From Candidatus Latescibacterota bacterium (GTDB lineage Bacteria > Latescibacterota > UBA2968 > UBA8231), in assembly GCA_965242865.1 (NCBI GenBank), contig CBDETK010000013.1:1376001-1440000 (forward strand): a stretch of 64,000 nucleotides of DNA, written 5' to 3'. Of this stretch, positions 22,288-37,769 are shown one piece after another. Made by a program: the position numbers and the translations under genes. Numbering within the stretch: position 1 is the first letter of the stretch; each line of letters opens with the position of its first letter. The notes under the pieces are model-generated. The model was not told the DNA's origin and made no database searches. It was given only the letters and a program-made list of their open reading frames with translations.

Positions 22288-24948
22288 ATGGAAGCGATAC
22301 GGCGAAGTACCGCGGCGGTCGCGGTGGTTTTGAGCGGCTTACTAAGCCCGGCCTTTAGCCAATCCGACTACGGCACGCGGCTGGGCGTCCCCCGCGGGAG
22401 CGGCGAGACCAGCTACGCCCCTTATGGCCCGGGCGTCCTGTTTGACGCGCTGGACCCGGCCATCAAAAAGTGGTACGTGCCGCAGGAACTCTACAACGAG
22501 TACCGCTGGCGTCAGTGGGAGTACAGCAACTACGCCCGCAACCAGTACCAGCGCTACGTCGATATCCAGCTAGAGGGCGATTACTACTACGACCTGTTTG
22601 GCAACGCCGTCACCCGCGGCTGGCTCATCTTTAGCAACTCCCAGACTCAGCCGCGGCAATTTGGCAGTTCGCTGGTCAAGGCCACTCGCTTCAACAACTG
22701 GTTTTCGGGCGTGGCCATTGCCTCGGACAGCAAGGGGCAGTACCACTACGCCCTGACGGTGTCGAATCGCCTGCGCACCACGCTCACCCCCATGAGCTTT
22801 TCCAAACCCGCTTGGGACGGGGTGCAATTCGACCTAGCGACCGACAAGTACCAAGGCACCGTCATCTACTCGCGCCTCAGTTCGCCCGGCGGGGCCTCGA
22901 CCGACAACACCGAAGTCCTCACCACCAACCTCACCACGCTCATGGGGGGCCGGGCCACCGCCCAGATCGGCGACTTCACCCAGCTCGGAGTCCACTTCGT
23001 CAACACCCACCAGTCCAACACCTTGCGCGATGGCTTTAAGGGCAACCCCATTGCCGGGGCCTTGACCGTGGACCAAAACCAGACCGTTTCCTTTATCGAA
23101 CTAGTCCTGCGCGACGACTCGCCGGCCGACGGCAGCGGGGGCGCGGCCTTCTTCCCGGTGGGGTCGGACATCCTCATTACCTACAACGACGGCACCGTGG
23201 ACCGCGGCCGGGAAATTCGCTTTGAACCCGCCATCCAAGGGGGGTTCGTCCAAGAAGGCTTTATCTCGGCCGATGGGTCCGAAGAGATCCGCCTGCTCTA
23301 CGACTTTGACACGCCGGCCTTTGTCAACCGGGCTTCGGGGCCTAAAGAAGAGATCGCCCAAGTCGAGTTTGAGCTGACCATTGGCAACGACTATCAGGTG
23401 TGGATGACGTCCAACAACCAGACCAATCGCAGCGGCGAACCCGTGCTGTTGCTCGTGGCGCAGGCCGAGGGCAATGTGCAGGACAACACCAACTTGCGCA
23501 TCCTCAAGTTCGAGTACGGCTTGCCAACGGCGACCCAAATTGTCGGGGCCACCCTAGAGCTGCGGGATGTGGCCGGCTTCAACTTGTACGGCGAGTACGA
23601 TTTGAGCGTAGCGTACCGCAAGTACCCCAGCGTGACGCGGACCAGCCACACCACGTCGGCCGGCGTGGCCGGGGAGCCGGTCGAGCCCGCTTGGATGCTC
23701 AACCTGTCTAAGGTGGCTCATCCTTGGTTCTTTTTTGGCGAAGCGTACAGCATGGACCCGCTCTACAACACCCGCACCTTTGTCACCGGCTCGGCCGGCA
23801 ACATCGACTACGAAAACGAGCGGTTCCACGTGGTGGAGCTGGTAGAGGACAACGACGATCAAGACCGGGCCCCCGATCTCGTGCGCGCGGATTCCCAAGC
23901 CGGCGACCGCCGGGTCTTCCCGGGCTGGGACGAAAATTACGACTTCATCTCGGACTTCAACCAAAACGACAACCTAACCATCTCCAATGGCATTCCCGAC
24001 TACGACGAAGCCTTCCTCCGCCACCGCGTCGATCGCCCGGACTTTCTCTACGGGATCGACATGAACAACAATCTGTGGGTCGACCGCTTTGAAAACGACG
24101 AAGCCCCGGATTACCCCTACCAGAAAGACCGTCGGGGTTTCAACGCATATCTGGGCTACCGGCTGACCCCGGACATCCGCGTTACTGTGGGGCACCTGCG
24201 CGAGGAACGGATCTCGGCCGACGAGCGCAATCACACATCCTACGCCCTGCTCAGCCTAGATCGGGACGATCCCCAGCAGGGGCGCGTGCGCTTTATGCAG
24301 ATGGTCAAGCTGGCCCGCGACAATATAGCGGACGACCTGCTGCAGTGGTTCCCCGAAAACACCCAGCGCGATGGCCAACTCCAAAAGGTGGTGGACCCGC
24401 TTTTGGCCCAAAACACTTGGATCAACACCACTTGGCTGGGGCACACCTACAACCGCGGCGGCTTGGAGACCTACAACTATCTCAACTTGGAGCTTTTTCA
24501 CCAGCGCGACCGAGCGGCCCCGCGTGCGACCGACTCCTTTTTTGGCGTCATCAACAAATTCAGCTATCGCTACGATCTGGGCGCGGTCCAACTCGAGTCG
24601 CGCTGGAAAAGCGAGTTTCGGCGCCAGACCGTGGGGCTGTTCACCGCCGACGAGGAGACCGTGCTGACCGAGATACTGGGGTTCCTCTTGGGGTTTCCCA
24701 TCCTCAACAACACCCGCATTCAAACCGGGATCGAGTACTCGTATGCCAACGACATGAAGCGCGACAACAACGATTTCACCGGGCTGGCCGGCGCCGTGCA
24801 GCTGGCCAATGTGAGCTCCTACTTGGGGTACGAGGTCTCCGCCCAAGTGGGGCTCAAAGCCGATTGGCGCGATTTCAAAAGCATCGAGCGCGAATCCGAA
24901 ATTCTGACCCAAGGCTTTATCACCCTGTATGCTGGCTTGGGCAAATAA
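22288..24948 (+). CDS. Large secreted/outer-membrane protein of unknown function, paralogue 3
   Basis: Signal peptide; DYGTRLG, YVPQELYNEYRWRQWEYSNYA and the same Ca-like motifs as 1722..4496; ends FITLYAGLGK. Confidence 0.85.
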   Translation: MEAIRRSTAAVAVVLSGLLSPAFSQSDYGTRLGVPRGSGETSYAPYGPGVLFDALDPAIKKWYVPQELYNEYRWRQWEYSNYARNQYQRYVDIQLEGDYYYDLFGNAVTRGWLIFSNSQTQPRQFGSSLVKATRFNNWFSGVAIASDSKGQYHYALTVSNRLRTTLTPMSFSKPAWDGVQFDLATDKYQGTVIYSRLSSPGGASTDNTEVLTTNLTTLMGGRATAQIGDFTQLGVHFVNTHQSNTLRDGFKGNPIAGALTVDQNQTVSFIELVLRDDSPADGSGGAAFFPVGSDILITYNDGTVDRGREIRFEPAIQGGFVQEGFISADGSEEIRLLYDFDTPAFVNRASGPKEEIAQVEFELTIGNDYQVWMTSNNQTNRSGEPVLLLVAQAEGNVQDNTNLRILKFEYGLPTATQIVGATLELRDVAGFNLYGEYDLSVAYRKYPSVTRTSHTTSAGVAGEPVEPAWMLNLSKVAHPWFFFGEAYSMDPLYNTRTFVTGSAGNIDYENERFHVVELVEDNDDQDRAPDLVRADSQAGDRRVFPGWDENYDFISDFNQNDNLTISNGIPDYDEAFLRHRVDRPDFLYGIDMNNNLWVDRFENDEAPDYPYQKDRRGFNAYLGYRLTPDIRVTVGHLREERISADERNHTSYALLSLDRDDPQQGRVRFMQMVKLARDNIADDLLQWFPENTQRDGQLQKVVDPLLAQNTWINTTWLGHTYNRGGLETYNYLNLELFHQRDRAAPRATDSFFGVINKFSYRYDLGAVQLESRWKSEFRRQTVGLFTADEETVLTEILGFLLGFPILNNTRIQTGIEYSYANDMKRDNNDFTGLAGAVQLANVSSYLGYEVSAQVGLKADWRDFKSIERESEILTQGFITLYAGLGK

Positions 24949-27151
24949 GGCGCGGGCACTGGCCGCCTTAGCTATCTTGGCCCTGGGACTGCGCTTGATT
25001 TACCTGTTCCAAGCCGCGGACAGCCCCTTTTTCGACGCGCCCATTGTAGATGCCAGAAGCTACACCGAATACGCCCGCGAGCTGACGACCGGCGCTTGGG
25101 CTGGGCGTCCCCTGCCGTTTTGGCAAGCCCCTTTTTACCCGTACCTCCTAGCCGTTCTTTTCTCCCTGTTTGGCGAAAACTACTACCTGCCGCGGCTACT
25201 CCAAGCCCTCGCTGGCACGGCCACTTGCCTGATCGTCGTCAAGTTAGGCCGCGCGGCCTTTTCCCCGACCGTGGGCTGGGTGGCCGGCCTAGCCGCGGCT
25301 TGGTACGGCCCCTTCCTCTACTTTGAGGGCGAACTTTTGCCCACGACTTGGGCCGTGCTTTTCGACGCCCTGCTGCTGGTGGTCTTGTTGTGGGGCCAAC
25401 GCCGGGGCGGGCTCCTTCCCGCGCTCAGTGCCGGTCTCGTCCTAGGGCTGGGCACTTTGGCCGTGCCAAATGTGTTGCTCTTTGCGCTGGTCGCGGCTTG
25501 GTGGGTGTATCGCGTGGCTCCGGGCCGCGGCGTCCTCCGCGTGGCGGTCTTTGCCGCTGGCCTACTGCTGCTGGTCGGCCCGGTGACCCTGCGCAATCGC
25601 ATCGTCGGCAACGAGTGGGTGCTCATCTCCTTCAACACGGGGGTCAACTTCTACCTCGGCAACAACCCGGACTACGACCGCACCGTAGCGGCGCGGCCCG
25701 GAGCCGGGTGGCACGAGGTGGTTGACTTGCCCCGCCGCGAGGCCGGCATCACCGAGCCGGGCGCGGGCTCAAACTACCTTTGGGGCAAAGCTTGGGAGTA
25801 TATACGCACCGATCCGAGCGGCTATTTGGCCCTGCTTTTGCACAAGGGCTATCTGTTTTGGCACGGGGCCGAGATCCCCCGCAACACCGATCCATACTGG
25901 GCCGCTGAGTACTCGCCGCTCTTGCGCCTGTTGCTGTGGAAGTACGGCCTCGCGTTTCCCTTTGGCTTGGTCTCGGCCTTGGCCCTGCTCGGGGCGGCCT
26001 ACGTCCTGCTCAAACCAGAACGCCGCACCCCGGGGGCCTATCTCGTCTTGCTCTTTGCCGGGGTCTATATGCTGTCGGTGGTGCTGTTTTTCGTCACCGG
26101 CCGCTACCGCTTGCCGGCCGTGCCCTGCCTTTTGCTGCTGGCCGCTTATGGGGCCTGCACCTTGGCCGGTTTGCGCGGCCGGTCCTTGTACCTGTCGGCT
26201 GGGGCCTTCGCCGGGCTGCTGTGGGTCACCAACGCCGGGACCGCAGCGACCCGGCCGCACGTGGCCGCCTTCCACCACTACTCGCTGGGTGCGGTCTATG
26301 AGAGCAAAGGCATGAAGACCAACGCCTTGCAGCACTATCGCCGCGCCATCGAACTCGCCCCGGCCCACCGTCGCGCGCTGCTGGGCCTAGCCTATATGTA
26401 CGGGGCGACTCAACGCTACGACGATGCCGCCCACACTTGGCGGCAATTCCTCGACCACTATCCAGACCAAGACGACATCCGCCTCCAGTTAGCGGATTTT
26501 CTTAGGCTGCGGGGCCAGCCCCAAGAGGCGGCGGTCGAGTACCAAAAGCTCCTAGTGCGGCAACCCAATCGCGCCGACCTGTACCTCCGCCTCGGTCGGG
26601 CCGAAGCCGCGGCTGGTCAACGGGTGCAAGCCGAAGCGGCCTATCGCCGCGCCCTCGAACTAGGCGCTCCGGCGGCTCACTACCTGCTGGGCCAGCTATA
26701 CGAAGCCCAAGGCGAGCCAGCCCGCGCCGAGCAAGCCTATCAGCAGCTCATCGCCCAGCATCCCGACCATCGCGCTGGGTTGTGCCATTTAGCCGATTTG
26801 CTGCTAAAGCGGGGGGACGAGGAAGCAGCCAAAAACCTTTTGCTCGCGGCGCTGGCGCTCGATCCCGACGACGCCCACGCCTTGCACAGCATGGGCACTT
26901 TAGAGGCCAACCAAGGTCAGTACCGCCAAGCCCTCCAGCGCTTTGAGCGCATCTTGCAACGCCATCCCCGCGATTTGCCGGCCCGCCGCTCCCTATCCCA
27001 CCTCCTGCTCAAAACGGGCCAGCGCGCCCGCGCCGATGCCGAGTACGCCCACTACCAGCGCCTAAAGCGGCAGCACCGCATGCAGCAACAGACGCAGGAA
27101 AAAACCAAGAAGCTAGCCGATCAACTGCGGCAGATGTTCAAAGCGCACTAG
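24929..27151 (+). CDS. GT-C (ArnT/PMT family 39-like) glycosyltransferase with TPR repeats
   Basis: PIVDARSY, PFYPYLLA, GVNFYLGNNP, FFVTGRYRLP, followed by multiple TPRs. Confidence 0.82.
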   Translation: MLAWANKARALAALAILALGLRLIYLFQAADSPFFDAPIVDARSYTEYARELTTGAWAGRPLPFWQAPFYPYLLAVLFSLFGENYYLPRLLQALAGTATCLIVVKLGRAAFSPTVGWVAGLAAAWYGPFLYFEGELLPTTWAVLFDALLLVVLLWGQRRGGLLPALSAGLVLGLGTLAVPNVLLFALVAAWWVYRVAPGRGVLRVAVFAAGLLLLVGPVTLRNRIVGNEWVLISFNTGVNFYLGNNPDYDRTVAARPGAGWHEVVDLPRREAGITEPGAGSNYLWGKAWEYIRTDPSGYLALLLHKGYLFWHGAEIPRNTDPYWAAEYSPLLRLLLWKYGLAFPFGLVSALALLGAAYVLLKPERRTPGAYLVLLFAGVYMLSVVLFFVTGRYRLPAVPCLLLLAAYGACTLAGLRGRSLYLSAGAFAGLLWVTNAGTAATRPHVAAFHHYSLGAVYESKGMKTNALQHYRRAIELAPAHRRALLGLAYMYGATQRYDDAAHTWRQFLDHYPDQDDIRLQLADFLRLRGQPQEAAVEYQKLLVRQPNRADLYLRLGRAEAAAGQRVQAEAAYRRALELGAPAAHYLLGQLYEAQGEPARAEQAYQQLIAQHPDHRAGLCHLADLLLKRGDEEAAKNLLLAALALDPDDAHALHSMGTLEANQGQYRQALQRFERILQRHPRDLPARRSLSHLLLKTGQRARADAEYAHYQRLKRQHRMQQQTQEKTKKLADQLRQMFKAH

Positions 27152-27514
27152 CAGAGGTCAATAATCGATAGGTTATATTCTTGAAACTGTTCAGGAACAT
27201 TTAGAGGAATCTTTGAGCAGTTATCTACAAGAATAATCTCCCTTGGAAAGCTAGTTATCTGGTGAATCTCGAAGATACCGTGTTTGTATAGAGCCGCGAG
27301 AACTTTTTCGAGTACGGCATCAGGGTCGAGATGGCTAGTGTCGATCTCGATGGGCTTGAACATTCGGTACGTTTGAAGCACGGCTTTCCGGGGGGCAGTA
27401 TCTGCTGCGAGGTTTTGCTCTTCAATTGTGGCCGGCTCACCGCGTCCACGCATCCGCTTCGTACGATTTTCCTCATCTACCGTAAGCAGGATAACCACAT
27501 CTATTACCAGTCAT
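27148..27514 (-). pseudogene. CMPK2/thymidylate-kinase-like nucleotide kinase, N-terminal (P-loop) half deleted; tail resembles a GT2 fragment
   Basis: DVVILLTVDEENRTKRMRGRG...EEQNL...IEIDTS...VLEKVL matches the NMP-kinase LID/C-terminus. No P-loop. The SD+ATG at 27514 is out of frame with it. The tail contains EIILVDNCS. Confidence 0.7.
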
Positions 27515-28373
27515 ACCGTCCTCCTCTCTGAAAAAACCGCTTGGCGTCGAGCGATATATCTTTTAAGGCTTCCTCGACTCCGACACCCAGAATGGGCCTA
27601 CTGTAGGTATGGGTCCCTCGATCGTTATCAAAAAAGCGTCCCGCTGGGTCAATCATAATGTAACTCGCGGTCATTAACTCATTGCTTTCCGGTACGACGA
27701 TTATTCCGTCATTTTCGACCACGCGATTTCGTCGAACGTACGCTTCAAATTGTTCTGTCGCGATCTCCAAATCAGCGATATACTCGTCGTTTTGCCCCTT
27801 TACAGGGAGGACTTGAAGAATTTTCCATCGTTCTGGTTTTGCCAATTTTATGAAATTGGTAAAATCCGACTCCCATGTTTCGGAGCTTACGACAGTGTTG
27901 ATTTTTAGACGTACTCCACGCTGTTTTATCGCAGCGATTTTTTGTAGATATTCTTCCTCAGTTATGGGCCTAGTATGGACGGTGCGCCCCAGTCGTTGCA
28001 GTCTTTCTGGATCGACGGTATCTATACTTAGAGCGATCCAATCTAGACTTCCATTTAGACTGTCCAGCCACTCTGTAGTGATTCTCGATCCGTTCGTGAC
28101 GATAGAGGTCACCATCCCACGTTTCTTTGCTCTTTTAATCAAGTCCGGCAGCCACTTACAGAGGGTAGGTTCACCGCCGGCAAAATTGATTTTCTCAAAG
28201 CCTTCCTGAGCGATCCGCTCTACAATCGAGATACAATCTTGTTCTGGCAGGTGACCTTTGGGTAGCTTCATATCTTGCTTGACGTCTTGAAATGTGGCAA
28301 AACAGAATCGACAGCGCATATTGCATGGTTCCCAAATATGATAGTTGACTGATGGAATTTTTGTGCTAGACAC
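27504..28373 (-). CDS. vip: Prokaryotic viperin (pVip), radical SAM antiviral ddhNTP synthase
   Basis: SVNYH..CNMRCRFCF, KINFAGGEP, SIVTNGS, LSID, KINTVV, RWKILQ, ESNELMTASY..IDPAGRF and C-terminal RGGRYDW. AGGAG RBS before the GTG start. Confidence 0.95.
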   Translation of the reverse strand: MSSTKIPSVNYHIWEPCNMRCRFCFATFQDVKQDMKLPKGHLPEQDCISIVERIAQEGFEKINFAGGEPTLCKWLPDLIKRAKKRGMVTSIVTNGSRITTEWLDSLNGSLDWIALSIDTVDPERLQRLGRTVHTRPITEEEYLQKIAAIKQRGVRLKINTVVSSETWESDFTNFIKLAKPERWKILQVLPVKGQNDEYIADLEIATEQFEAYVRRNRVVENDGIIVVPESNELMTASYIMIDPAGRFFDNDRGTHTYSRPILGVGVEEALKDISLDAKRFFQRGGRYDW

Positions 28374-28440
28374 GACTTCCCTCCTAAGACAGTTTTCTGA
28401 GCAGAATATCGCTACACTTCATTGCCGGTGAAGCCATTTA

Positions 28441-28490
28441 TTGGATAGGTGCTGACCGCAAAAAGAAATACCGCAGTCAGCACCGACCAA
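28441..28490 (-). terminator. Stable hairpin between the small ORF and pVip (attenuator or processing stem)
   Basis: Minus strand GGTGCTGACTGCGG-loop-TTGCGGTCAGCACC, 14-bp stem with G-U pairs; no U-tract after it. Confidence 0.55.
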
Positions 28491-28494
28491 TCAA

Positions 28495-28644
28495 TCATTT
28501 GCTTTTTGGAGAGGCATTATCTCGGCCTTTACCAGAAGGGTTGCCCGTTGTGCTGGGCTTGCCGCCAGGTCCGCGACTTTTGCCTTTACCGCCGTTTTGT
28601 GGACCGCCTTTACTGCCTCCGCGACCACCTTTCGATTTAGCCAT
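28495..28644 (-). CDS. Small Gly/Lys-rich basic peptide (49 aa)
   Basis: Perfect SD AAGGAGGTGA before ATG 28644; MAKSKGGRGG...PSTTGNPSGKGRDNASPKSK. An in-frame TTG at 28686 is an alternative start. Confidence 0.7.
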   Translation of the reverse strand: MAKSKGGRGGSKGGPQNGGKGKSRGPGGKPSTTGNPSGKGRDNASPKSK

Positions 28645-28683
28645 TTTCTCACCTCCTTTCTCGCAGAGATTCACCGCATCACA

Positions 28684-28742
28684 CAAGTATTCCCTAGCGG
28701 TGTACTACTTAAACACCTTCAGCGGCGCGGAGCGTTACTTTT
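28684..28742 (-). promoter_or_regulatory. Putative ECF-dependent promoter/5' UTR, copy 2 (upstream of peptide-pVip)
   Basis: AAAAGTAAC-N17-GTGTTTAAG; 49/59 ungapped identity with 32666..32724. Confidence 0.75.
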
Positions 28743-28783
28743 GCAGTGGATTTTTGTTGCGACGAAAGGATGAGTAGGCCCGT

Positions 28784-30823
28784 CTAGCGGCTGTAGCGCA
28801 GGCCAAAGAAAAAGCCCGGCCACGCGAAAAGCCCATCCTTCCATTCCTTCTCGTAGCGGCTACCCGACTCGATCAGCCGAAGATGGCTATCGGTCCACAA
28901 CTGGTTCAAGGAGACGCCGCCAAACAGCGACAGATGGCGGTGCAAAAAGACCCCGGTTCCGAGTTTGATTCGGGCCAGATAGTTGTCCTTACTCAAGCGG
29001 TCCAAGCCCAAATCCACCTTGAGCGGCCAAAGGCCAACGCCTGCTTTGTAATCGTCATCGAGAGCGCGGCTGATCCGGTAGATATGTGCATCGAGGCCGA
29101 GGAAGAACCGCTGGCCGCGCTTCTGCACCCCGACCCCTAAGCCCAACGCCCAGCGTCGCTGGCCGCCCGCGTCGGCAAAGCCCGTGGTAAAAGAGGTGTA
29201 AAACGAGCGGCTGCCCGAGGCGAGCGTGAATAGGGTAAAGCCGACTTCGTCGCGCCAAGTGCTGAAGTTGAAAAGCCCGCTGCGCGAGTAGTTGATCAGC
29301 CCGATGGGCAAGCCGCCCTCGATATGGCCAGAAAGGTTGATCACGCCCACCTGCAAGCCCTTGACCTCGCTCGCCGCGTTCAATACCCCGACCTGCCAAC
29401 CGCGGATTTTGCCGGCGATGTTGAGCAACCCTACTTGGCCACCCTGCAAAGGCCCCAACCCCGAGCCGCGCACTTGAGAGGCGATGTTGAGCAACCCTAC
29501 TTGGCCGCCTTGTAACGGCCCCAGCCCCCAGTTGACGCCTGTGAGGGTCGCCTGCCAGCCATCGATCTCCTTGAGTGCCAAGTTGCCCACCCAACTGACT
29601 TGAGTGCCCGTCCGCGCCCGCGCTTGGTTGACCAGTAAGGCGAACTGGACGCCGCGGAACGCCTCGTCTTGGGTATTGGTCAGCAGCCCCAGCGACAGCG
29701 TATAGCGCTCGCCGGCGGCAACCTCGATTTGGCGGCCCAAGGTGATCCTCGGCCGCGAGCCGCCGCGTAGCCTAGCGTCCTCTGGGGACAGGGCGCGAAA
29801 GTCGCCGCCCCGCACCTCGGCGAACCCGCCCTTAGTCAGGTCCAACTCGGCCACTTGCCAGCCTGCATCCCCCATTGCCAAAAACAGGGTATAGGCCCCC
29901 GGCACCAATCCCAACTCGACCGACCGCCCGGGGGACTTGTTCAGTTCGGCGACTAGGCGTTGCTGGGCATTGCGAACGAAGAGCCGACCGGCGAGGCCCT
30001 CGTCTAGCAACAGGCCCGCGGCGTTGCGGCGCACCGCAGTCAACACCACGTCGCCGGTGCCGCGCATCTGGCCCTCATAGGCTGGATGCTGAGTGCCCCC
30101 GGCGGTGCCAATAGTCCGCGCCCGCGTCTCGTCAAAGACGAACTGGTAAGCCTCGTGGAGGGTCACCCAGTCATCGCCGTTAACGTTGGCCGCGCCGCGC
30201 AGCCCGGAAATTAGATAGTGAGTAAAAAAGGACGCCTCGATCCGGTCCGATTCCTGCGCGGCCTCGTCGGCCGAGCTCGACGTGAGGAAGGCGTACCCCT
30301 GCATGTCGAAGGACTCGTCGACCAAAAAGGGCGGCTGGCGCTTGCCCCCTTTGGTGCGGGTTATGGCCCCGGAGTTACAGGCGTCGAGGATGGCGATGCG
30401 GAAGGCGGCCTCGGTCGTCTCTAGCGAGTCGAGCAACTGCTGATAGCCGAGGCGGTCGCCCTTCGCCAAAAGCAGGCCCTCTTCGTCGGCGTGGCCCGAG
30501 TAGTAAAGCAGCACCTCTAAGCGGCCCGCCCGCCGCCGGGCCGCCTGCACCCGCCGGCCTAGATCGGCCAGCCCCTGCTCAAAAGCAGCCAAATCCGGGT
30601 CGCGCAACAGCAACACATCGGCCGGGTCCAAGCCCCCCATCTCCTGCAAGACCGCGACGAAGTGTTCCGCGTCCGAGACCGCGTAGCGCAACAGTTCGCG
30701 GTCCACCCCGCCGTTGTTGGCCCCGGCAGCCAGCACCAACCGGCGCACCTCGGCCGCGGCCGGCTGCAAAGACAGGCTCGCCGCAACCACGAGCGCGATT
30801 AGCCCACTCAGCCGCGATACCAT
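28784..30823 (-). CDS. Secreted caspase-family (peptidase C14) protein with Gly-Gln repeat region and C-terminal beta-rich domain
   Basis: Signal peptide; LRYAVSDA, YYSGHAD, LDACNSG (His-Cys dyad), SFFTHYLISGLRG; GxQxGLxN repeats; ends WPGFFFGLRY. Confidence 0.88.
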   Translation of the reverse strand: MVSRLSGLIALVVAASLSLQPAAAEVRRLVLAAGANNGGVDRELLRYAVSDAEHFVAVLQEMGGLDPADVLLLRDPDLAAFEQGLADLGRRVQAARRRAGRLEVLLYYSGHADEEGLLLAKGDRLGYQQLLDSLETTEAAFRIAILDACNSGAITRTKGGKRQPPFLVDESFDMQGYAFLTSSSADEAAQESDRIEASFFTHYLISGLRGAANVNGDDWVTLHEAYQFVFDETRARTIGTAGGTQHPAYEGQMRGTGDVVLTAVRRNAAGLLLDEGLAGRLFVRNAQQRLVAELNKSPGRSVELGLVPGAYTLFLAMGDAGWQVAELDLTKGGFAEVRGGDFRALSPEDARLRGGSRPRITLGRQIEVAAGERYTLSLGLLTNTQDEAFRGVQFALLVNQARARTGTQVSWVGNLALKEIDGWQATLTGVNWGLGPLQGGQVGLLNIASQVRGSGLGPLQGGQVGLLNIAGKIRGWQVGVLNAASEVKGLQVGVINLSGHIEGGLPIGLINYSRSGLFNFSTWRDEVGFTLFTLASGSRSFYTSFTTGFADAGGQRRWALGLGVGVQKRGQRFFLGLDAHIYRISRALDDDYKAGVGLWPLKVDLGLDRLSKDNYLARIKLGTGVFLHRHLSLFGGVSLNQLWTDSHLRLIESGSRYEKEWKDGLFAWPGFFFGLRYSR

Positions 30824-30834
30824 GGATTTTAACT

Positions 30835-31407
30835 CTACCAGATTTCGCTGAGATCCAATACAAATCCCGGCAAGAGGGGATCGGCCGATAGGGCCTTGAG
30901 GTTTTGCCGCACTTCAACCGGGGTTTGCGGGCAGTAGATCGCTATGGTTTTTTGCTCTGGGACCATGAGCCAGCCGAGTTGAGTGCCGTTTTCAATGTAT
31001 GCTTCCATTTTCTGTTGCAACGCGGGCAGGTAATCCGAGGGCGACTTGAGCTCGATGACAAACTCTGGACAAAGCGGCAAAAAGCGCTCCTTTTGCGCCT
31101 CGGTCAGGGCATCGTATCGCGGCCGCGCAACCCACGCGCCATCCGGCGAGCGAACCGAGCGGTCCGGTAGCACAAAGCCGCTCGAGGAATCAAAGGCCAC
31201 GCCAGTGCCATCGCGTTTGGCCCACAAGCCCAACTGCATGGTGATTTCTGCATTCCGGGCACCCGTTGCTCCGCCCGTTGGTAGCATAACGAGTACTTCT
31301 CCTTTTGCATTGCGCTCAATGCGCACATCGCGATTGAACTGACAAAAGTCAAAGAATTGCTCTTCGGTCAGGTCGATAACGGGCTGAAAGTTTAGTACGG
31401 CTTCCAT
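30835..31407 (-). CDS. Uma2 family PD-(D/E)XK endonuclease
   Basis: ERNAKGE, FDSSSGF.LP...RSPD.AW, CPEFVIELKSPSD, KM..Y..NG..LGWL, LPGFVLDLSEIW. Start MEAVL at 31407. Confidence 0.92.
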   Translation of the reverse strand: MEAVLNFQPVIDLTEEQFFDFCQFNRDVRIERNAKGEVLVMLPTGGATGARNAEITMQLGLWAKRDGTGVAFDSSSGFVLPDRSVRSPDGAWVARPRYDALTEAQKERFLPLCPEFVIELKSPSDYLPALQQKMEAYIENGTQLGWLMVPEQKTIAIYCPQTPVEVRQNLKALSADPLLPGFVLDLSEIW

Positions 31408-31430
31408 AGAGATACCTCGCGGGTCGAGTG

Positions 31431-32198
31431 CTAAGGGGCCGCTGGTTTGCGTAGGGTGAAGGTAAAGAGGTGGACGTCGTCGGCCAGCGCCTTGTCGCCG
31501 GCGGCCAGCTTGGCCCGGATCGGAGCTAGGGCAAAGCGGCGGTCGGCCGCCACCAAGTAAAACCGCTCCCACAGCGGCGCGTCGTCGAGTTCGTAGGCCG
31601 CGTCGAGGGTATCTTGCGCTGCCAACGGCACGGCCTGGGTTCCGGCCGTTGGCAAGTGCCAAGTGACAGCCCCGCGCCCATCAATGGACAGGATCGCCCC
31701 GTACTGCAAGCCGCCGGAGCGGTAGGCGAGCTGCACCCAGTCCCCGCTTTGGGCCAAGGTCCAGTCCTGCAAGCGCTCGGCCCCGCTGGCCTGCTTGCGG
31801 AAAACCTGCAAGCGCGGCGTCCGCTCACCGCCCTTGACCCGCAGGGCGGGGGCTTGCGGGGTTTCTCGGTCAAAGAGAGTGGGCACCGCCACCACCGCCA
31901 GGATCAGGGCCACGGCCGGAACGGCCCAAAGGCGATACCCACTCCACGCTCGTCGGGCGCGCCGGCCCGACGCCCGCTTGAGTTTTAGCTCGATCTGGCC
32001 GCGCATCCATTCGGGGGGATAGCGCCTAAGCACGTCCTCGTTGGACCGCGCTAGGGCGGCTAGACGCTCTGCGAGCGCGGGGTCGGACGCCAACTGGCGG
32101 TCCAAAGCCGCCAACTCAGCCTCCGTACCCTCGCGCAACAAGTAGCGTTCTAGCTGGTAGTCGCTGATGGGGCGCTCTTCTTGCTCTTGCTCGTTCAT
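31431..32198 (-). CDS. Putative membrane anti-sigma factor (ActD-like, DUF4384-like periplasmic domain)
   Basis: Coupled to the ECF gene (4-nt overlap). N-terminal LERYLL.E, one TM helix, RVKG, then QLAY...ILSIDGRG...YELDDAP..ERF. Confidence 0.75.
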   Translation of the reverse strand: MNEQEQEERPISDYQLERYLLREGTEAELAALDRQLASDPALAERLAALARSNEDVLRRYPPEWMRGQIELKLKRASGRRARRAWSGYRLWAVPAVALILAVVAVPTLFDRETPQAPALRVKGGERTPRLQVFRKQASGAERLQDWTLAQSGDWVQLAYRSGGLQYGAILSIDGRGAVTWHLPTAGTQAVPLAAQDTLDAAYELDDAPLWERFYLVAADRRFALAPIRAKLAAGDKALADDVHLFTFTLRKPAAP

Positions 32199-32668
32199 GC
32201 TTTCTCCATCTCTTGCAGCGACGCTCTCAGGCCGAGCAATCGCTTGCGCACCCCGGACACGGACAGCCCCACTTCCCGCGCTACCTCGGCCAAAGTCATG
32301 CCGTCAACGTAGTACAAGACGGCCATCGTGCGCGTTGACTCGCGCTGCTGGCCAAAGAGCTTGGCGAGCACGGCACGCGCCTCTATTCGGCCCTCGGCGT
32401 CCTCCCAGCAGGCGATCTGCTCCAGCAGCGTTGAGTCGGCCGTGGTCTTGCGCCGCTGGGTGTCGCGGATGCGATTGAGGCAGAGGTTGGTGGCCATGCG
32501 GTAGAGCAGGCTGGAGGGGGCGTCGGCCCGCAGGCGGTCGCGCCGCGTCAACAGCCGCACAAAGACATCCTGCGTGGCGTCGAGCGCTTGGTCTTCGTCG
32601 CGCAATAGCTGCCGACAGCGACGCAGGACCATCGGTCCGTAGCGACGGTACAGTGTATCTACATCCAT
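32195..32668 (-). CDS. ECF RNA polymerase sigma-70 factor
   Basis: LYRRYGPMVLRRC, ALDATQDVF, LYRMATNLCLN, DGMTLAEVAREVGLSVSGVRKRL. Start ATG 32668. Confidence 0.93.
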   Translation of the reverse strand: MDVDTLYRRYGPMVLRRCRQLLRDEDQALDATQDVFVRLLTRRDRLRADAPSSLLYRMATNLCLNRIRDTQRRKTTADSTLLEQIACWEDAEGRIEARAVLAKLFGQQRESTRTMAVLYYVDGMTLAEVAREVGLSVSGVRKRLLGLRASLQEMEKA

Positions 32669-32724
32669 GTAGTTCCTGGCGGTGTACTCCTTAAACACCT
32701 ACGGCGGCGCAGGGTGTTACTTTT
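32666..32724 (-). promoter_or_regulatory. Putative autoregulatory ECF promoter/5' UTR, copy 1
   Basis: AAAAGTAAC-N17-GTGTTTAAG, about 25 nt before the sigma ATG; an AAC-containing -35 is typical of ECF promoters. Confidence 0.75.
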
Positions 32725-32781
32725 CCTCGCTCTGGGCCGGGTCGTCGATCGGCATAACAGGCTCCTGAAACTGGGCCAACC

Positions 32782-34512
32782 CTAGGCGGTAAAGAGCGCC
32801 AAGACGGTCCAGCACAAAGCCGCCAAGCACGCCGCAAGCGTCGCCTGCGGGATTTGCGTCTTGACGTGGTCCATCAGGTCGCAGCCTGTACACATGGAAC
32901 TCAGCACGGTGGTATCCGAAATCGGCGAGCACTGGTCGCCGTACACGCTGCCGTCCATGACCGCGGCAAAACACAGCGTCATAAACAGCTCGGGATGCGC
33001 CAAGCCGTTGGAGCCGGCCACCGCCCAAGCAAGCGGCATGGCCAATGGGAACGCCACCGCATACGTGCCCCAGCTCGTGCCGGTAGAAAAGGCGATGACC
33101 ATGGTGAGGAGCTGGAGCAGGACCGGCAGGAGGAAATACGGAATGGCCTCGCCGAGCAGTTCGACCAAAAAGATGCTGCCGCCCGCCTCCTTGCTGATGC
33201 CGCCGATGGTGATGGCTAGCAGCAAAATAACCGAGCCGAGCACCACTCCCTTAATGCCGTCGTGAAAGCCGGCGATGAGGTCTTTCAGCGCCATGCCCTT
33301 GGCCAAGGCCATGCCCGCGGCCAACAAAAGCGCGATGCCAAAGGCCCACTGCACATTGGGCGAGCCGCTCGTGATAAAGGTGCCGACCGCAATGGCGATG
33401 AGCGTGCCGAGCGGCAAGAAGAATTCGAGGACGTGCGGCGAGTACCCGGCCGGCACGTTGCTCCCTTGCAGCTCCTTGGCGCTCAAAGGGTCGGCAGAAG
33501 GCGAGTCGAGCTGGCCGGTCGTGCGGGCGCGCTGCATGGCCGCCTTGAGTTGCGACCCCAAAAAGAGGGGCCTTTCAATGCTGAGGAGGAACGTGCCCAA
33601 GACGGCAAAAATGGCGTAAAAACAAAAGGGCACGCTTTGGAAAAAGAAGGCAATGCGATCCGCTTCCGTGGCCAAAAAGCCCACGCCGGAGACGAAGATA
33701 AACGCCTGCACATAGCCGGGCCAAGCGTTGAACGCGAGCTGAGAGGCAATCGGCGAGGCCGTTGAATCGACCACGTAAGCCAACTCCTCGTGGCTGATTT
33801 TTTCGTTGTCGGCAATGGGTTTGACCGTGGTGCCGACCAAGACCGTGCTGACCGTCCCGCCTTGGAAAAAGACTACCCCGAGCATCCAAGCGACCAACTT
33901 GGCACTGCGGGGGCCGCGCACAAAGCGCTCGGTCATAAATTCGGCAAAGGCTTGAGCCGCGCCCGTGCGCGACCATATCCCCATCAGCCCGCCCAACAGC
34001 CACAAGTAGAGCAGCAGAATCCCGGCCGCGTTTTTGGTCGCCAAGGAGGGAATGAGCACCTCGCCGGTGAAGTCGTAGCGGCCCAACAGGAGCGCGCCGG
34101 AGATGATGCCGCCCAACAGGGAGGTGACCGGTTCTTTGGTCAGCCAACACAACAGCACGGCCACCAAGGCCGGCAGCAGCGACCAATAGCTCCAGTGGCG
34201 CTTGGCTACCAGTTTGTAGTAGCGGTCCGTCAGGGCCTTTTTGTCAAACTCTTTGACGAACTCTTCGCGGACCGACGGTGCAGTACCCGACCGATGTATT
34301 TTGGCCGGGTCGAGCTGGGCTTGCTCTAGGGGCACGGCCTCAAAATAGACGGGTTTTTCGCGGTAGATGTAGTACAGCTTGCCGTCGCTGTCCGCTTTCA
34401 CGTCTAACTCGGCCCTTTCGACCGTCCAAGTCGGCGTCACGTTGGCCCCGACGATCCAAGACGCGAGCATGGCGACGACAAAAATGGCAAAGTTGCGAAT
34501 GCCTCTGGGCAT
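32782..34512 (-). CDS. Na+/H+ antiporter NhaC family protein
   Basis: ISHEELAYVVDSTASP, FSTGTSWGT, GDQCSPISDTTVLSS...DHVKTQ. Confidence 0.88.
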   Translation of the reverse strand: MPRGIRNFAIFVVAMLASWIVGANVTPTWTVERAELDVKADSDGKLYYIYREKPVYFEAVPLEQAQLDPAKIHRSGTAPSVREEFVKEFDKKALTDRYYKLVAKRHWSYWSLLPALVAVLLCWLTKEPVTSLLGGIISGALLLGRYDFTGEVLIPSLATKNAAGILLLYLWLLGGLMGIWSRTGAAQAFAEFMTERFVRGPRSAKLVAWMLGVVFFQGGTVSTVLVGTTVKPIADNEKISHEELAYVVDSTASPIASQLAFNAWPGYVQAFIFVSGVGFLATEADRIAFFFQSVPFCFYAIFAVLGTFLLSIERPLFLGSQLKAAMQRARTTGQLDSPSADPLSAKELQGSNVPAGYSPHVLEFFLPLGTLIAIAVGTFITSGSPNVQWAFGIALLLAAGMALAKGMALKDLIAGFHDGIKGVVLGSVILLLAITIGGISKEAGGSIFLVELLGEAIPYFLLPVLLQLLTMVIAFSTGTSWGTYAVAFPLAMPLAWAVAGSNGLAHPELFMTLCFAAVMDGSVYGDQCSPISDTTVLSSMCTGCDLMDHVKTQIPQATLAACLAALCWTVLALFTA

Positions 34513-34553
34513 GGGAGTCCTTTCGATTGAATGGAGTGAGGTGGGTTATCGGC

Positions 34554-36137
34554 TCATATTCCCGACGGTTCGCTCGGCCCTAGATCCGGGTCTTGGCCGC
34601 GGTGGAAATTGCGCCCCATCAGGTATTTTATATCCAGTTCCACATCGCGCACAAAAATCTCCGGCAGCGCTTGGGCGTCTCGCCGCACCAATTCGACGGC
34701 GAGCGCGTTGTTCCCCTTTTTCGGCCAGTGTTTGGCGTCCAGCCTAAACGCGTACCAATACCCCGAGCCCGTGCGATAGCGCGGGGCCGACATGCGGTAC
34801 AATTCGTTGATCTTGCGCAACAGGTGGGCGGGCAGCTCCCGGCCGTTGAGGTAGAATGTTAGCCGGTCGCGCTCGGTGTGGCCCATCACCCGCACCCGCA
34901 GCAACACCTCGTGGATTCGGCCCACCTTGGCCCAGTGCCGCAGATCGTCGCTGACCGACAGGGTGATGGACGCTCGGTGGCCCTTTTGCAACGGGGCCGG
35001 TAGCTGCATCGTCGTCCCCGGCTCGGTGGTGGGCTGGGGGAAGCGGCCGGTCGCGGTCGGCACGTAGTAGATTTTGTCGCGGGCGGCCATGACCTCTGGA
35101 TAGGGCAATTCCCGCAGCTTCTCGTAAAAGGAGGCCTGGTACGGCCAATTCCCGAACCAGTGCGCCAAGTACAGGCCATCGACGCCTTGCGCCCAAAAGT
35201 TGCAAGCGGCCCCGCGCACCATCTCGATGGTCGCCTCTCCTAGGCGGTCTGAATCCACGTGACTTTGCAAGGCCGCCAACACCCGGCAGTCCGTGCCTTT
35301 GGCCGCGGCCACCAAGGGCCGGAAATCAATGGTCGAATCGAGCAGCTCGGGGCCGGAAAACGCTTGGCCGATGAGCGCGTCGACCCGCCCTGCACGCAAC
35401 CACGCTGCCACGTCCATGCCCACGCCATAGCACCCCTCCATGCTGTGGGGAATGCGGATGGCCAATTCGCGGTGCTTCCCGCTTTGCTTGACCACGCGAT
35501 ACACCTCGCCCACCCACTCGGTCATAATCGCGCGGCCGGCCGCGACTTCGTCGGGGTGGAAGTAGTAGGGCTGGTAGTTCATCTGCAGCTCAAAGCCATC
35601 GACCGGATATTTTTCCAAGGTCTCGGCAATCAGGGCCAAGCGTTCGTCGCGGACTTCTTGGTGCTTAAAATCGAGACAGGTGCGGCCGGGAAAGTCGTCG
35701 GGGACGCCGGGTTGCGCCCCGATTTCGAGGTGGGCGTTGTCAAAGCGGAAGTTTGAGCAGCGCACATCCTCTGCCCGCGGCCCCCGGCCCTGCTGCACCA
35801 ACAGCGTCGGATAAATCAGCTTGCCGTACTGGTGGGCGCGGTCGCAAATCAGGCGCAGGGGATCGTGCCCCTTGCGGATTAGGTCGCGGGCATTTTGGTG
35901 GGCGCGGCGAAAAATCAAATGGGGCCACCGCTTCACATTGTGGCCCCACAGTTCTCCCACCTCGGTGTCGTGCAGCACGGTGCGACCGTCGCCGAGGCAA
36001 AACATGAGGGCCTCGACCGGCGTCCCCAGCAGCTCATCTACGCCCTGCTCGTATTCCTCTTTTTGGATCGGCGGCTCGTACATGTAAATCAGCGGGTGCC
36101 GGCCGTCGTGGTAAAACATGATCTTGGGCTTGGGCAT
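34554..36137 (-). CDS. Glycoside hydrolase-like (GHL10-type TIM barrel) protein
   Basis: GHDPLRLICDRAH, LDFKHQEVRD, YPVDGFEL, GVDGLYL. Confidence 0.6.
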   Translation of the reverse strand: MPKPKIMFYHDGRHPLIYMYEPPIQKEEYEQGVDELLGTPVEALMFCLGDGRTVLHDTEVGELWGHNVKRWPHLIFRRAHQNARDLIRKGHDPLRLICDRAHQYGKLIYPTLLVQQGRGPRAEDVRCSNFRFDNAHLEIGAQPGVPDDFPGRTCLDFKHQEVRDERLALIAETLEKYPVDGFELQMNYQPYYFHPDEVAAGRAIMTEWVGEVYRVVKQSGKHRELAIRIPHSMEGCYGVGMDVAAWLRAGRVDALIGQAFSGPELLDSTIDFRPLVAAAKGTDCRVLAALQSHVDSDRLGEATIEMVRGAACNFWAQGVDGLYLAHWFGNWPYQASFYEKLRELPYPEVMAARDKIYYVPTATGRFPQPTTEPGTTMQLPAPLQKGHRASITLSVSDDLRHWAKVGRIHEVLLRVRVMGHTERDRLTFYLNGRELPAHLLRKINELYRMSAPRYRTGSGYWYAFRLDAKHWPKKGNNALAVELVRRDAQALPEIFVRDVELDIKYLMGRNFHRGQDPDLGPSEPSGI

Positions 36138-37253: not shown

Positions 37254-37334
37254 TTCCTTGCCGTTTGACAACCGGCCTGAGCGGCCGTACTGTTGGGGCC
37301 GTTTATCCAACCCATTTCCCACAGGAGGAACATC

Positions 37335-37769
37335 ATGGCTATCATACCTAATATCAGTTCGGACCTCGCAGGGCCGCTCGGAGCCATTCACCTGCCGCGC
37401 CTGTGGTCCAAGCTGCGCCTGAGCGCGGCCGGCGAGCTGCCGGCCGACTACCCAGAATGCGGCGCGGGCTTCGACCAGATGGTTCTCGACGGCCTCGGCA
37501 TCGACCGCGACGCGGCCGTGGCCTATGTCAAGGACAACAAGGCCAGCTATATCGAATTTGAAAACTGGGTCAAAGCCCAGCGCGGCGGCGCCATTCCCCA
37601 AAGCGAAATCGACGCTTCCAACGCCGCCATCCGCGGCTACAACCACGACGACGAAACCCGCGGCAGCATCCTCGACGCCGCTGGCCTCAGCGACGACGGC
37701 AGCATCCTCGACGCCGTCAACCTCAACAACCTCGACGACTGGACTGAGCTGCACAACGCCCTGAGCTAA
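37335..37769 (+). CDS. DUF5069-like protein
   Basis: AGGAGG RBS; GAIHLPRLWSK.RL...G.L..DY...FD...L..LGID. Confidence 0.7.
   Translation: MAIIPNISSDLAGPLGAIHLPRLWSKLRLSAAGELPADYPECGAGFDQMVLDGLGIDRDAAVAYVKDNKASYIEFENWVKAQRGGAIPQSEIDASNAAIRGYNHDDETRGSILDAAGLSDDGSILDAVNLNNLDDWTELHNALS

Follow-up and report, generated by a model that had tools for sequence, protein, structure and literature searches.

A Probable Promoter Motif Shared by an ECF Sigma Operon and a Viperin Gene

We analyzed a 64,000-nucleotide (nt) stretch of a Candidatus Latescibacterota genome (assembly GCA_965242865.1, contig CBDETK010000013.1, positions 1,376,001 to 1,440,000; hereafter the window), in which a 59-nt element occurs twice on the minus strand, once before an operon for a sigma factor of the extracytoplasmic function (ECF) type, an anti-sigma factor and an exported caspase-like protease, and once before a small peptide gene and a viperin gene. 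The two copies are probably promoters read by the ECF sigma factor encoded at 32195..32668, copy A standing before the sigma/anti-sigma/caspase operon and copy B before the peptide and viperin genes. Both carry the motif GT(A/G)AC-N17(16)-G(T/G)GTT, which has been conserved upstream of the genes of this sigma family in different phyla and turns up again before envelope genes of the genus. As a form of control this would be the ordinary kind of ECF autoregulation, set inside an undescribed caspase-linked regulon through which viperin may be induced.

Copy A (32666..32724, minus strand), which is predicted to be the sigma operon's autoregulatory ECF promoter together with its leader, has a -35-like GTAAC at 32716-32720 and a -10-like GTGTTTAA at 32691-32698, and copy B, a second predicted ECF promoter and leader (28684..28742, minus strand), has GTAAC at 28734-28738 and GTGTTTAA at 28709-28716. 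An earlier note on this DNA had described the pair as a 59-nt repeat, and the two copies indeed align without gaps at 49 of 59 positions, with identity stopping abruptly at either edge. Since no other place in the genome (6.0 Mb, both strands) matched copy A without gaps at more than 34 of 59 positions, or copy B at more than 35 of 59, the repeat is far above chance. Read on the minus strand, the mismatches between the copies fall at spacer positions 10, 12, 14, 22 and 24 and leader positions 36, 47, 51, 53 and 57, while the first 9 nt and the 11-nt second box have none; the alignment thus agrees with the note's count of five mismatches in the 17-nt spacer and none in the boxes. In each of runs X1 and X2 one public contig agrees with this DNA with 0 differences, over both copies in X1 and, in a comparison that covered copy B only, in X2, whose contig of 8941 nt is as long as that of X1. 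This speaks against mis-assembly but is not independent support, because these runs may be the source of the DNA.

Conservation of the motif before orthologous ECF genes was one of the tests that the earlier note had set. The results showed that the core motif GT(A/G)AC-N17(16)-G(T/G)GT(T/C) lies at most 150 nt upstream in 39 of 45 related sigma loci (L021-L065, sigma identity 54-97%), compared to 40 of 8710 random windows. The records of these loci are titled Latescibacterota, Gemmatimonadetes, Acidobacteriota, Myxococcales, Planctomycetota and others, and among the loci with a sigma below 80% identity the motif was present in 19 of 24. The spacer is 17 nt at 38 loci and 16 nt at one, and the six loci without the motif include L035, where the promoter is damaged, and L041, where a site stands 869 nt upstream, before an extra gene. 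At sigma loci below 46% identity (L066-L099, excluded from the 45-locus count) the strict pattern gave no match, the relaxed pattern not having been applied there. The form given in the note, GTAAC-N17-GTGTTTA, was right but too narrow, as it misses this genome's M48 site and most distant sites; the full form is GT(A/G)AC-N17(16)-G(T/G)GTT-NN-A. With a scoring matrix trained on 19 distant promoters and the same-genus promoter L023, copy A ranked second (24.3 bits) and copy B fourth (22.5 bits) in the genome, and eight genome sites scored above 21 bits compared to none in the reversed genome, where the maximum was 19.3. Two further sigma promoters, of another family, scored 24 bits.

ECF sigma factors generally autoregulate their own promoters, and by this general rule the sigma factor encoded beside copy A would be the one that reads these sites. 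It has Asn and Arg where N84 and R171 of RpoE align, a numbering that we assume to carry over through AlgU. Because the motif is conserved before related sigma genes and recurs before envelope genes with unrelated spacers, it is very probably the promoter of this ECF sigma factor, and the earlier proposal that the repeat is a promoter plus leader for the adjacent ECF gene is supported on the same grounds. The Asn and Arg also appear to fit the promoter letters -12G and -31C, to which residues of the N84/R171 type are tied by Todor et al. (10.1101/2020.06.23.168245). In addition, the geometry of the motif resembles that of the mapped DdvS promoter, GTAA-n16-CGT (PMC6061681).

Genes Downstream of Copy B

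The operon genes, the peptide, the viperin and the kinase remnant are all encoded on the minus strand. Downstream of copy B lies a Shine-Dalgarno-like sequence (28649-28659) followed by a gene for a 49-amino-acid (aa) basic Gly/Lys peptide (28495-28644; together 28495..28659), with a pI of 11.8 and 15 Gly. Peptides of this kind form a widespread family without a name, which has a PSTTGNPSG-type core (184 matches) and occurs in 11 of 61 related genomes. An ESM Atlas search with the peptide returned weak results, three unnamed small-protein clusters at 0.91-0.92 and of low recognition value, and a literature search for its motifs found no match. Right after the peptide stop is a 14-base-pair hairpin (28448..28484, minus strand; -29.1 kcal/mol for a 65-nt fold) without a U tract, and a similar stem with different letters, again without a U tract, follows the peptide at five other loci. 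The hairpin was not among the calls of an intrinsic terminator scan, which like a sigma-70 promoter scan gave results at chance level, and the sole match of an Rfam search for structured RNA (E 0.91) lay inside the caspase gene.

The viperin gene starts 122 nt after the peptide stop and is an open frame for a prokaryotic viperin of 289 aa (27504..28373; NF038283 316 bits against a cut-off of 180; PADLOC pVip). It is followed by the remnant of a viperin-associated nucleotide kinase gene (27148..27514), from which about 350 nt, the P-loop part among them, are gone in comparison to the intact gene at L026. Viperin is present in 6 of 31 genomes of the genus, and at four of the six a site of at least 16 bits lies within 700 nt upstream, compared to 15 of 16,038 random windows. 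These viperin-linked sites are of three promoter types: cassette B here, one copied from the TPR-lipoprotein promoter in both G013 and G001, and a third type in G020, whose site lies 58 nt ahead of the viperin start without a peptide between them. A basic Gly-rich peptide gene is directly upstream in seven of the nine viperins examined. The viperin kinase of L026 matches PDC-M51B, so that the partner kinases of viperin and of PDC-M51A may come from one family. The earlier note had proposed a regulon without naming its target genes, which are here predicted to be the caspase operon and viperin.

Some further observations concern the position of the peptide gene. One gene slot, recognizable by a shared ribosome-binding site, a MAKS start and a 3′ hairpin, holds three basic peptide types (PSTTGNPSG-type, NRANQLNPNN-type and SMP-like) at L160:3283-3450, L187, L161:752-922, L215 after 3551, L100 and L103, and one database protein joins the PSTTGNPSG-type with PF04927. 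The labels SMP-like and NPNN-type are ones that we presume from sequence appearance, with no family call. A protein of 580-650 aa without a Pfam or PADLOC match (L215:1761-3551, G000:C13 near 4312290; L160, L187, L189-L191) is regularly encoded upstream of the peptide slot, and the two are then followed by viperin, PDC-M51A or a metallo-beta-lactamase-fold gene.

Sites Elsewhere in the Genus

Two motif patterns were counted in the 31 genomes of the genus and gave 56 matches compared to 31, and 127 compared to 59, in reversed-pattern controls. The hits fall into recurring classes, between which the spacers are just 37% alike. Among 63 regions taken around pattern matches or sigma/peptide genes, which are mostly class representatives and not a random sample, most sites lie within about 170 nt of the starts of genes with signal-like N-termini. 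The envelope-type genes fronted in this way encode TonB-receptor-like, M48 peptidase, TatT, LptE-like, CotH, FG-GAP and TolC-like proteins and unnamed lipoprotein- or outer-membrane-like proteins, and a minority of sites front cytoplasmic genes, i.e., those for peptides, viperin, the PDC-M51A radical SAM protein, a helicase resembling MkoA and an unknown protein of 580 aa. This genome has sites before an M48 lipoprotein gene (C13:1836706), a TPR-type lipoprotein gene (261459), a label we take from sequence appearance with no family call, and the PDC-M51A gene (3393903), and the site at C13:4311988 fronts the unknown protein together with a second, NPNN-type peptide.

The radical SAM gene at L214:2508-3995 (G000:C13 near 3394000), with a PADLOC PDC-M51A match of 1.3e-89, lies behind a motif site. 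The top-scoring site of the genome, C13:2510484 (L216), is inside a short open reading frame (ORF) about 180 nt before a triad of TerY-like vWA, phosphatase-like and kinase-like genes, and is kept in G019. Another match, near G000:C13 4787400, is antisense and intragenic, and the genes there look like type III CRISPR RAMP/Cas10 by sequence appearance.

Counter-Evidence and Alternative Explanations

Several results weigh against reading the two copies as promoters of this sigma factor that serve its operon and viperin. The sparing of the boxes, which the earlier note took as a sign of selection, is a real pattern, but from two copies alone it is suggestive and weak evidence: for the 20 nt that the note picked with the alignment already in view P is 0.010, and for the core of 10 nt (GTAAC plus GTGTT) it is 0.13. 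High motif scores are not specific, given that five of the eight top genome sites sit inside ORFs on either strand and that at 14 bits the genome and the control are equal (44 and 47 sites). The sigma gene is present in this genome, yet no site stands before its TatT, TonB-receptor, CotH, LptE-like and helicase homologs; G004 is without the TatT site, site turnover being fast; and in family f2, genus g8, the pattern is not enriched over the control. Co-loss points weakly in the right direction: three genomes without detected sigma/anti-sigma keep a site of at least 14 bits at 1 of 13 target homologs, compared to 4 of 8 in two sigma-bearing genomes, these counts being small and the search for the absent sigma having run without a positive-control genome. 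G027 has cleanly lost the M48 promoter. Because sites turn over quickly, the co-loss test is a weak one.

The viperin part of the reading meets objections of its own. Peptide genes outside the genus are without the motif, which was found at only 1 of 41 metagenome peptide loci, that one being a B-type cassette. The four viperin cases are not independent, since G013 and G001 share one arrangement, and two genus viperins have no site, the one in G010 having its promoter and peptide deleted and the one in G014 keeping the peptide behind other upstream DNA, near a contig end. Three f2 viperins stand behind the same peptide with no motif, and no sigma gene of this kind turned up in their genomes, so that the peptide-viperin pair needs no such promoter; in two f2 genomes the peptide precedes PDC-M51A rather than viperin. 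In addition, the link between caspase and anti-sigma, drawn from constant linkage, an intact dyad and analogy with DdvA, Csx29/Csx30 and PCaspase, is the least supported part of the whole.

It is conceivable, though we consider it unlikely, that copy B serves the peptide only, with the hairpin ending transcription and viperin being cargo in an insertion hot spot past the caspase operon, expressed otherwise or never. The strong 14-base-pair stem after the peptide may block read-through into viperin, the kinase is broken here, and the post-caspase site holds varied cargo, including HSDR_N-HRDC, GIY-YIG, insertion sequence (IS) and toxin-antitoxin-like genes. The L026 viperin, which has the intact kinase, lies behind a long AT-rich upstream region without a copy B. 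However, that AT-rich region is missing from the window, where only the short interval mentioned above separates the peptide stop from the viperin start, the hairpin has neither a U tract nor a terminator call, and the G020 site directly precedes a viperin with no peptide between.

Much less probable is that the motif is bound by another regulator, either a different ECF sigma factor or a dimeric repressor on the partial inverted repeat AACACC...GGTGTT of copy A. The genome does hold other candidate sigma factors (13 at a first look), GGGAC and GGAAC variants occur at some sites, and G027, where no sigma gene of this kind turned up, still has a 15-bit site as well as the orphaned sigma promoter. 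But the motif follows this sigma family at a fixed upstream place across phyla, neither copy B nor the GTGAC/GGGTT sites retain the inverted repeat, and the half-sites are asymmetric and 16-17 nt apart, as in ECF promoters. Reading by the adjacent ECF sigma factor remains the preferred explanation.

Copy B as a Member of a Cassette Lineage

Copy B starts 42 nt past the caspase stop and lies within a low-GC segment (27152..28783, 47% GC compared to 64-65% in the flanks) that holds copy B, the peptide, viperin and the kinase remnant and sits between two convergent genes. In run X4 the contigs of the dominant strain branch at 27151 and 28788, i.e., at the ends of this segment, and a minor strain has it. 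Relatives carry different DNA, or nothing, at this place. The GC contrast and these branch points make copy B, peptide, viperin and kinase a strain-variable island. A second copy after the caspase stop (up to 4.5 kb) was found at 4 of 20 same-genus loci and was absent at 16, two loci being short. In a tree of 22 A and 20 B-type copies, one ‘B’ of which is an orphaned A promoter, the two types separate with 2 label changes compared to 14.3 on shuffling, although with rough support. The copy B of the window matches L103 at 16/17 spacer positions and L022 at 24/25 positions of the upstream flank, compared to 12/17 spacer positions with its own copy A. By sequence comparison, copy B is shown to be an old and not a fresh duplicate of the sigma promoter and leader.

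The conserved unit consists of promoter, leader, ribosome-binding site and first codons, and it is also met at unlinked places, in front of genes for an LptE-like protein, for other peptides and for exported proteins. These occurrences show copy B to be a member of a genus-wide lineage of promoter-leader-ribosome-binding-site cassettes that has moved around the genus. At L107, L108, L109 and L104 the first codons of the cassette are fused to or lie ahead of the LptE-like lipoprotein gene, an instance of promoter capture, and the gene upstream of that lipoprotein gene in several of these cases is one we take to be rpoN-like. The earlier note had also drawn attention to the exact alignment of the sigma ATG (32668) with a TTG (28686) in frame with the peptide ORF. 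The alignment is as described, but it failed as a functional clue, since other B copies do not keep the TTG in frame. TTG 28686 was rejected as the peptide start, there being an in-frame stop in L021, TAT in L022 and a position out of frame in L108. The Shine-Dalgarno-like AGGAGGTGA and ATG 28644, unlike the TTG, are kept in other B copies, and judged by these copies the aligned TTG is a vestige.

A further reading, highly improbable and largely refuted, takes the repeats for scars of recombination, or for attachment sites, at the two ends of an inserted element of 4 kb, and gives copy B no function as a promoter. Direct repeats do flank the operon, and 16 of 20 same-genus loci are without a copy B after the caspase. 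But the sigma, anti-sigma and caspase genes, which lie between the repeats, are what is conserved, the variable DNA being outside copy B, and the B copies are more alike across genomes than to their own A copies, cluster together, retain the two boxes and are also met at unlinked places before other genes. The empty-site test of the earlier note turned up empty sites without lending support to scars, because it is the sigma promoter that stays in place and the other copy that moves, as a cassette of promoter, leader and ribosome-binding site. Separately, a short recurrent element like CTGCGTAACATCAG or its reverse complement was seen in intergenic DNA of L037, L157, L162, L163 and L171 near shuffled promoter modules; this element is possibly a recombination or repeat end.

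The Sigma, Anti-Sigma and Caspase Operon

The sigma factor (32195..32668, minus strand, 157 aa) matches Pfam Sigma70_r2 and r4_2 above cut-off and TIGR02937 with 82 bits against 42.9, and is a short protein with sigma2 and sigma4 domains only, as expected of an ECF factor. Its stop is overlapped by the start of a predicted single-pass anti-sigma gene (31431..32198, 255 aa). The structure model of this protein, with a predicted local distance difference test (pLDDT) score of 86.9, shows four helices in the N-terminal part, then a single membrane helix (hydropathy peak at residues 90-108) and an outer domain related to DUF4384, predicted as a 125-aa beta-sandwich of Ig-like fold (best Z 9.4). 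Fold searches gave generic Ig-like matches only, with no CI-2 or pro-peptide fold among the matches listed, and a profile search found no informative solved relative by sequence. The protein has 2976 relatives at the 50% cluster level; DUF4384 was matched (E ≤ 0.01) in 28 of 139 homologs and not in the window protein itself. The zinc motif H-x3-C-x2-C was present in none of the 139 homologs, and the A3 consensus contains no Cys. In the region of L112 (G027:C1 near 113057) a deletion has apparently removed sigma and anti-sigma and left the sigma promoter abutting the part of the caspase gene that encodes the C-terminal half.

Between anti-sigma and caspase lies an accessory insert of 55% GC for a Uma2-family putative endonuclease (30835..31407, PF05685), which is absent in most relatives and found whole or in part at the same-genus loci L021, L022, L025 and L035. 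The last gene encodes an exported caspase-like protease of 679 aa (28784..30823; Peptidase C14, PF00656) with a signal-like hydrophobic N-terminus and LA_2272-type repeats. Its dyad, His111/Cys149, is invariant across 33 aligned sequences, and its C-terminal domain is variable, with both this domain and the number of repeats differing among relatives. A sequence search found no informative solved relative of the caspase. The gene contains a 66-nt tandem duplication (29387-29518) encoding LA_2272-type repeats.

Proposed Mechanism

We propose that the ECF sigma factor recognizes the motif sites and that the adjoining membrane protein would keep it inactive, the architecture of that protein suggesting that its Ig-like domain lies outside the inner membrane. 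On envelope damage the co-encoded exported caspase may cleave or gate the anti-sigma, as a split analogue of DdvA; this is the least supported step. Copy B, which goes back to an old duplication of the sigma promoter with its leader, was fused to the ribosome-binding region of the peptide and moved around the genus as a cassette. On induction it would yield much short mRNA for the peptide that stops at the hairpin, read-through giving less viperin. The regulon would be concerned mostly with keeping up the envelope, accessory defence genes having come under its control on repeated occasions. Since copy B precedes viperin, a switch that mainly fronts envelope genes is predicted to turn on antiviral defence too. 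A wider reading is possible, if rather doubtful, in which a widespread and so far undescribed module of ECF sigma, DUF4384-type membrane anti-sigma and exported caspase perceives damage to the envelope, or attack by phage, outside the cytoplasm and in this lineage has captured viperin at least three times via different promoter copies, along with other defence-like genes (PDC-M51A radical SAM, Mokosh-like helicase) and the basic Gly-rich peptide slot.

A duplicated ECF promoter is ordinary by itself, and the interest lies in the genes wired to it. The analysis gives a checkable promoter consensus and a predicted regulon for an uncharacterized sigma/anti-sigma/exported-caspase module and a concrete candidate for how a bacterial viperin gets switched on, and it points to accessory genes being brought into a regulon through the reuse of promoter-leader cassettes. 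If the wider reading is true, bacterial viperin would be an induced gene below a caspase-gated surface alarm, parallel to the interferon-induced viperin of animals.

Comparison With Known Systems

As proposed, the module would behave as an envelope regulon under an autoregulated ECF sigma and its anti-sigma does, and in part as DdvS/DdvA does. DdvS/DdvA of Myxococcus xanthus (PMC6061681, PMC11506125) has an ECF sigma factor with a single-pass anti-sigma, a caspase-type protease domain outside the inner membrane and an autoregulatory promoter starting GTAA that is repeated before defence genes, features that the predicted module here resembles. DdvA, however, has its TPR-CHAT part built in and a zinc-bound N-terminus, and its system has the promoter GTAA-n16-CGT with four promoters at one CBASS-CRISPR locus, whereas here the C14 caspase is a separate exported protein, the outer domain is Ig-like, the -35 is alike but the -10 part is G(T/G)GTT at a different usual spacing, and the predicted regulon is dispersed and mostly of envelope genes, with some defence-like targets. 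Without TPR-CHAT and the zinc motif, the protein is not of the DdvA type. ECF25 (Nostoc SigG/SapG; Casas-Pastor et al., PMC7826278) has a single-pass anti-sigma at +1 that carries a zinc-binding, DUF4384 or DUF4349 domain, an envelope role and overlapping taxa (Gemmatimonadetes, Deltaproteobacteria, Acidobacteria, Spirochaetes). Its promoter, given there for subgroups s1 and s2 only, is GGAAC / GTC compared to GT(A/G)AC / G(T/G)GTT here, and no caspase is named in the consulted part of that source for its conserved context. The sigma factor thus fits ECF25 by anti-sigma type and taxa and not by the published promoter.

The PCc-sigma/PCi/PCk/PCaspase operon of Haliangium ochraceum (10.1101/2023.06.23.546230) likewise combines a sigma factor, a small partner gene and a C14 caspase, but its cascade is set off by SAVED-CHAT and cyclic oligoadenylate and has a kinase and a PCi predicted to be CI-2-like, whereas the operon here has no SAVED-CHAT or protein kinase, a caspase with a signal-like N-terminus and a membrane-bound Ig-like partner. 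Neither SAVED-CHAT nor a PCk kinase was found by Pfam among 11 ORFs at 22288-36137, the rest of the genome not having been searched for either. The module therefore shares the C14 caspase with its His/Cys dyad beside a sigma factor but, with no SAVED-CHAT or kinase in the cluster, is not a member of the PCaspase group. In type III-E Csx29/Csx30/RpoE systems (10.1101/2022.08.17.504292), a caspase-like protease cleaves a sigma-binding protein, and one Csx30 C-terminal domain group is DUF4384, reported there to be frequently fused to protease domains; type III-E is triggered by CRISPR RNA, and the operon here has no Cas7-11 or CHAT protease. The prokaryotic viperin with its kinase (10.1101/2023.09.13.557418; NF038283; PADLOC pVip) shows the same order of viperin then nucleotide kinase gene, but here the kinase is broken and an upstream basic peptide gene and an ECF-type promoter are added. 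The accessible part of that study gives no account of transcriptional control. Our literature search, which did not extend to subscription papers and bioRxiv supplements, turned up no description of this module and none of viperin being controlled by an ECF factor, and the sigma group or motif may already be tabulated in the supplement of Casas-Pastor et al. or the promoter tables of Todor et al.

Elsewhere in the window, a 158-aa ORF at 37293-37769 lies opposite to and overlaps an oxidoreductase-like ORF and contains a 36-nt-spaced repeat at 37661-37730.

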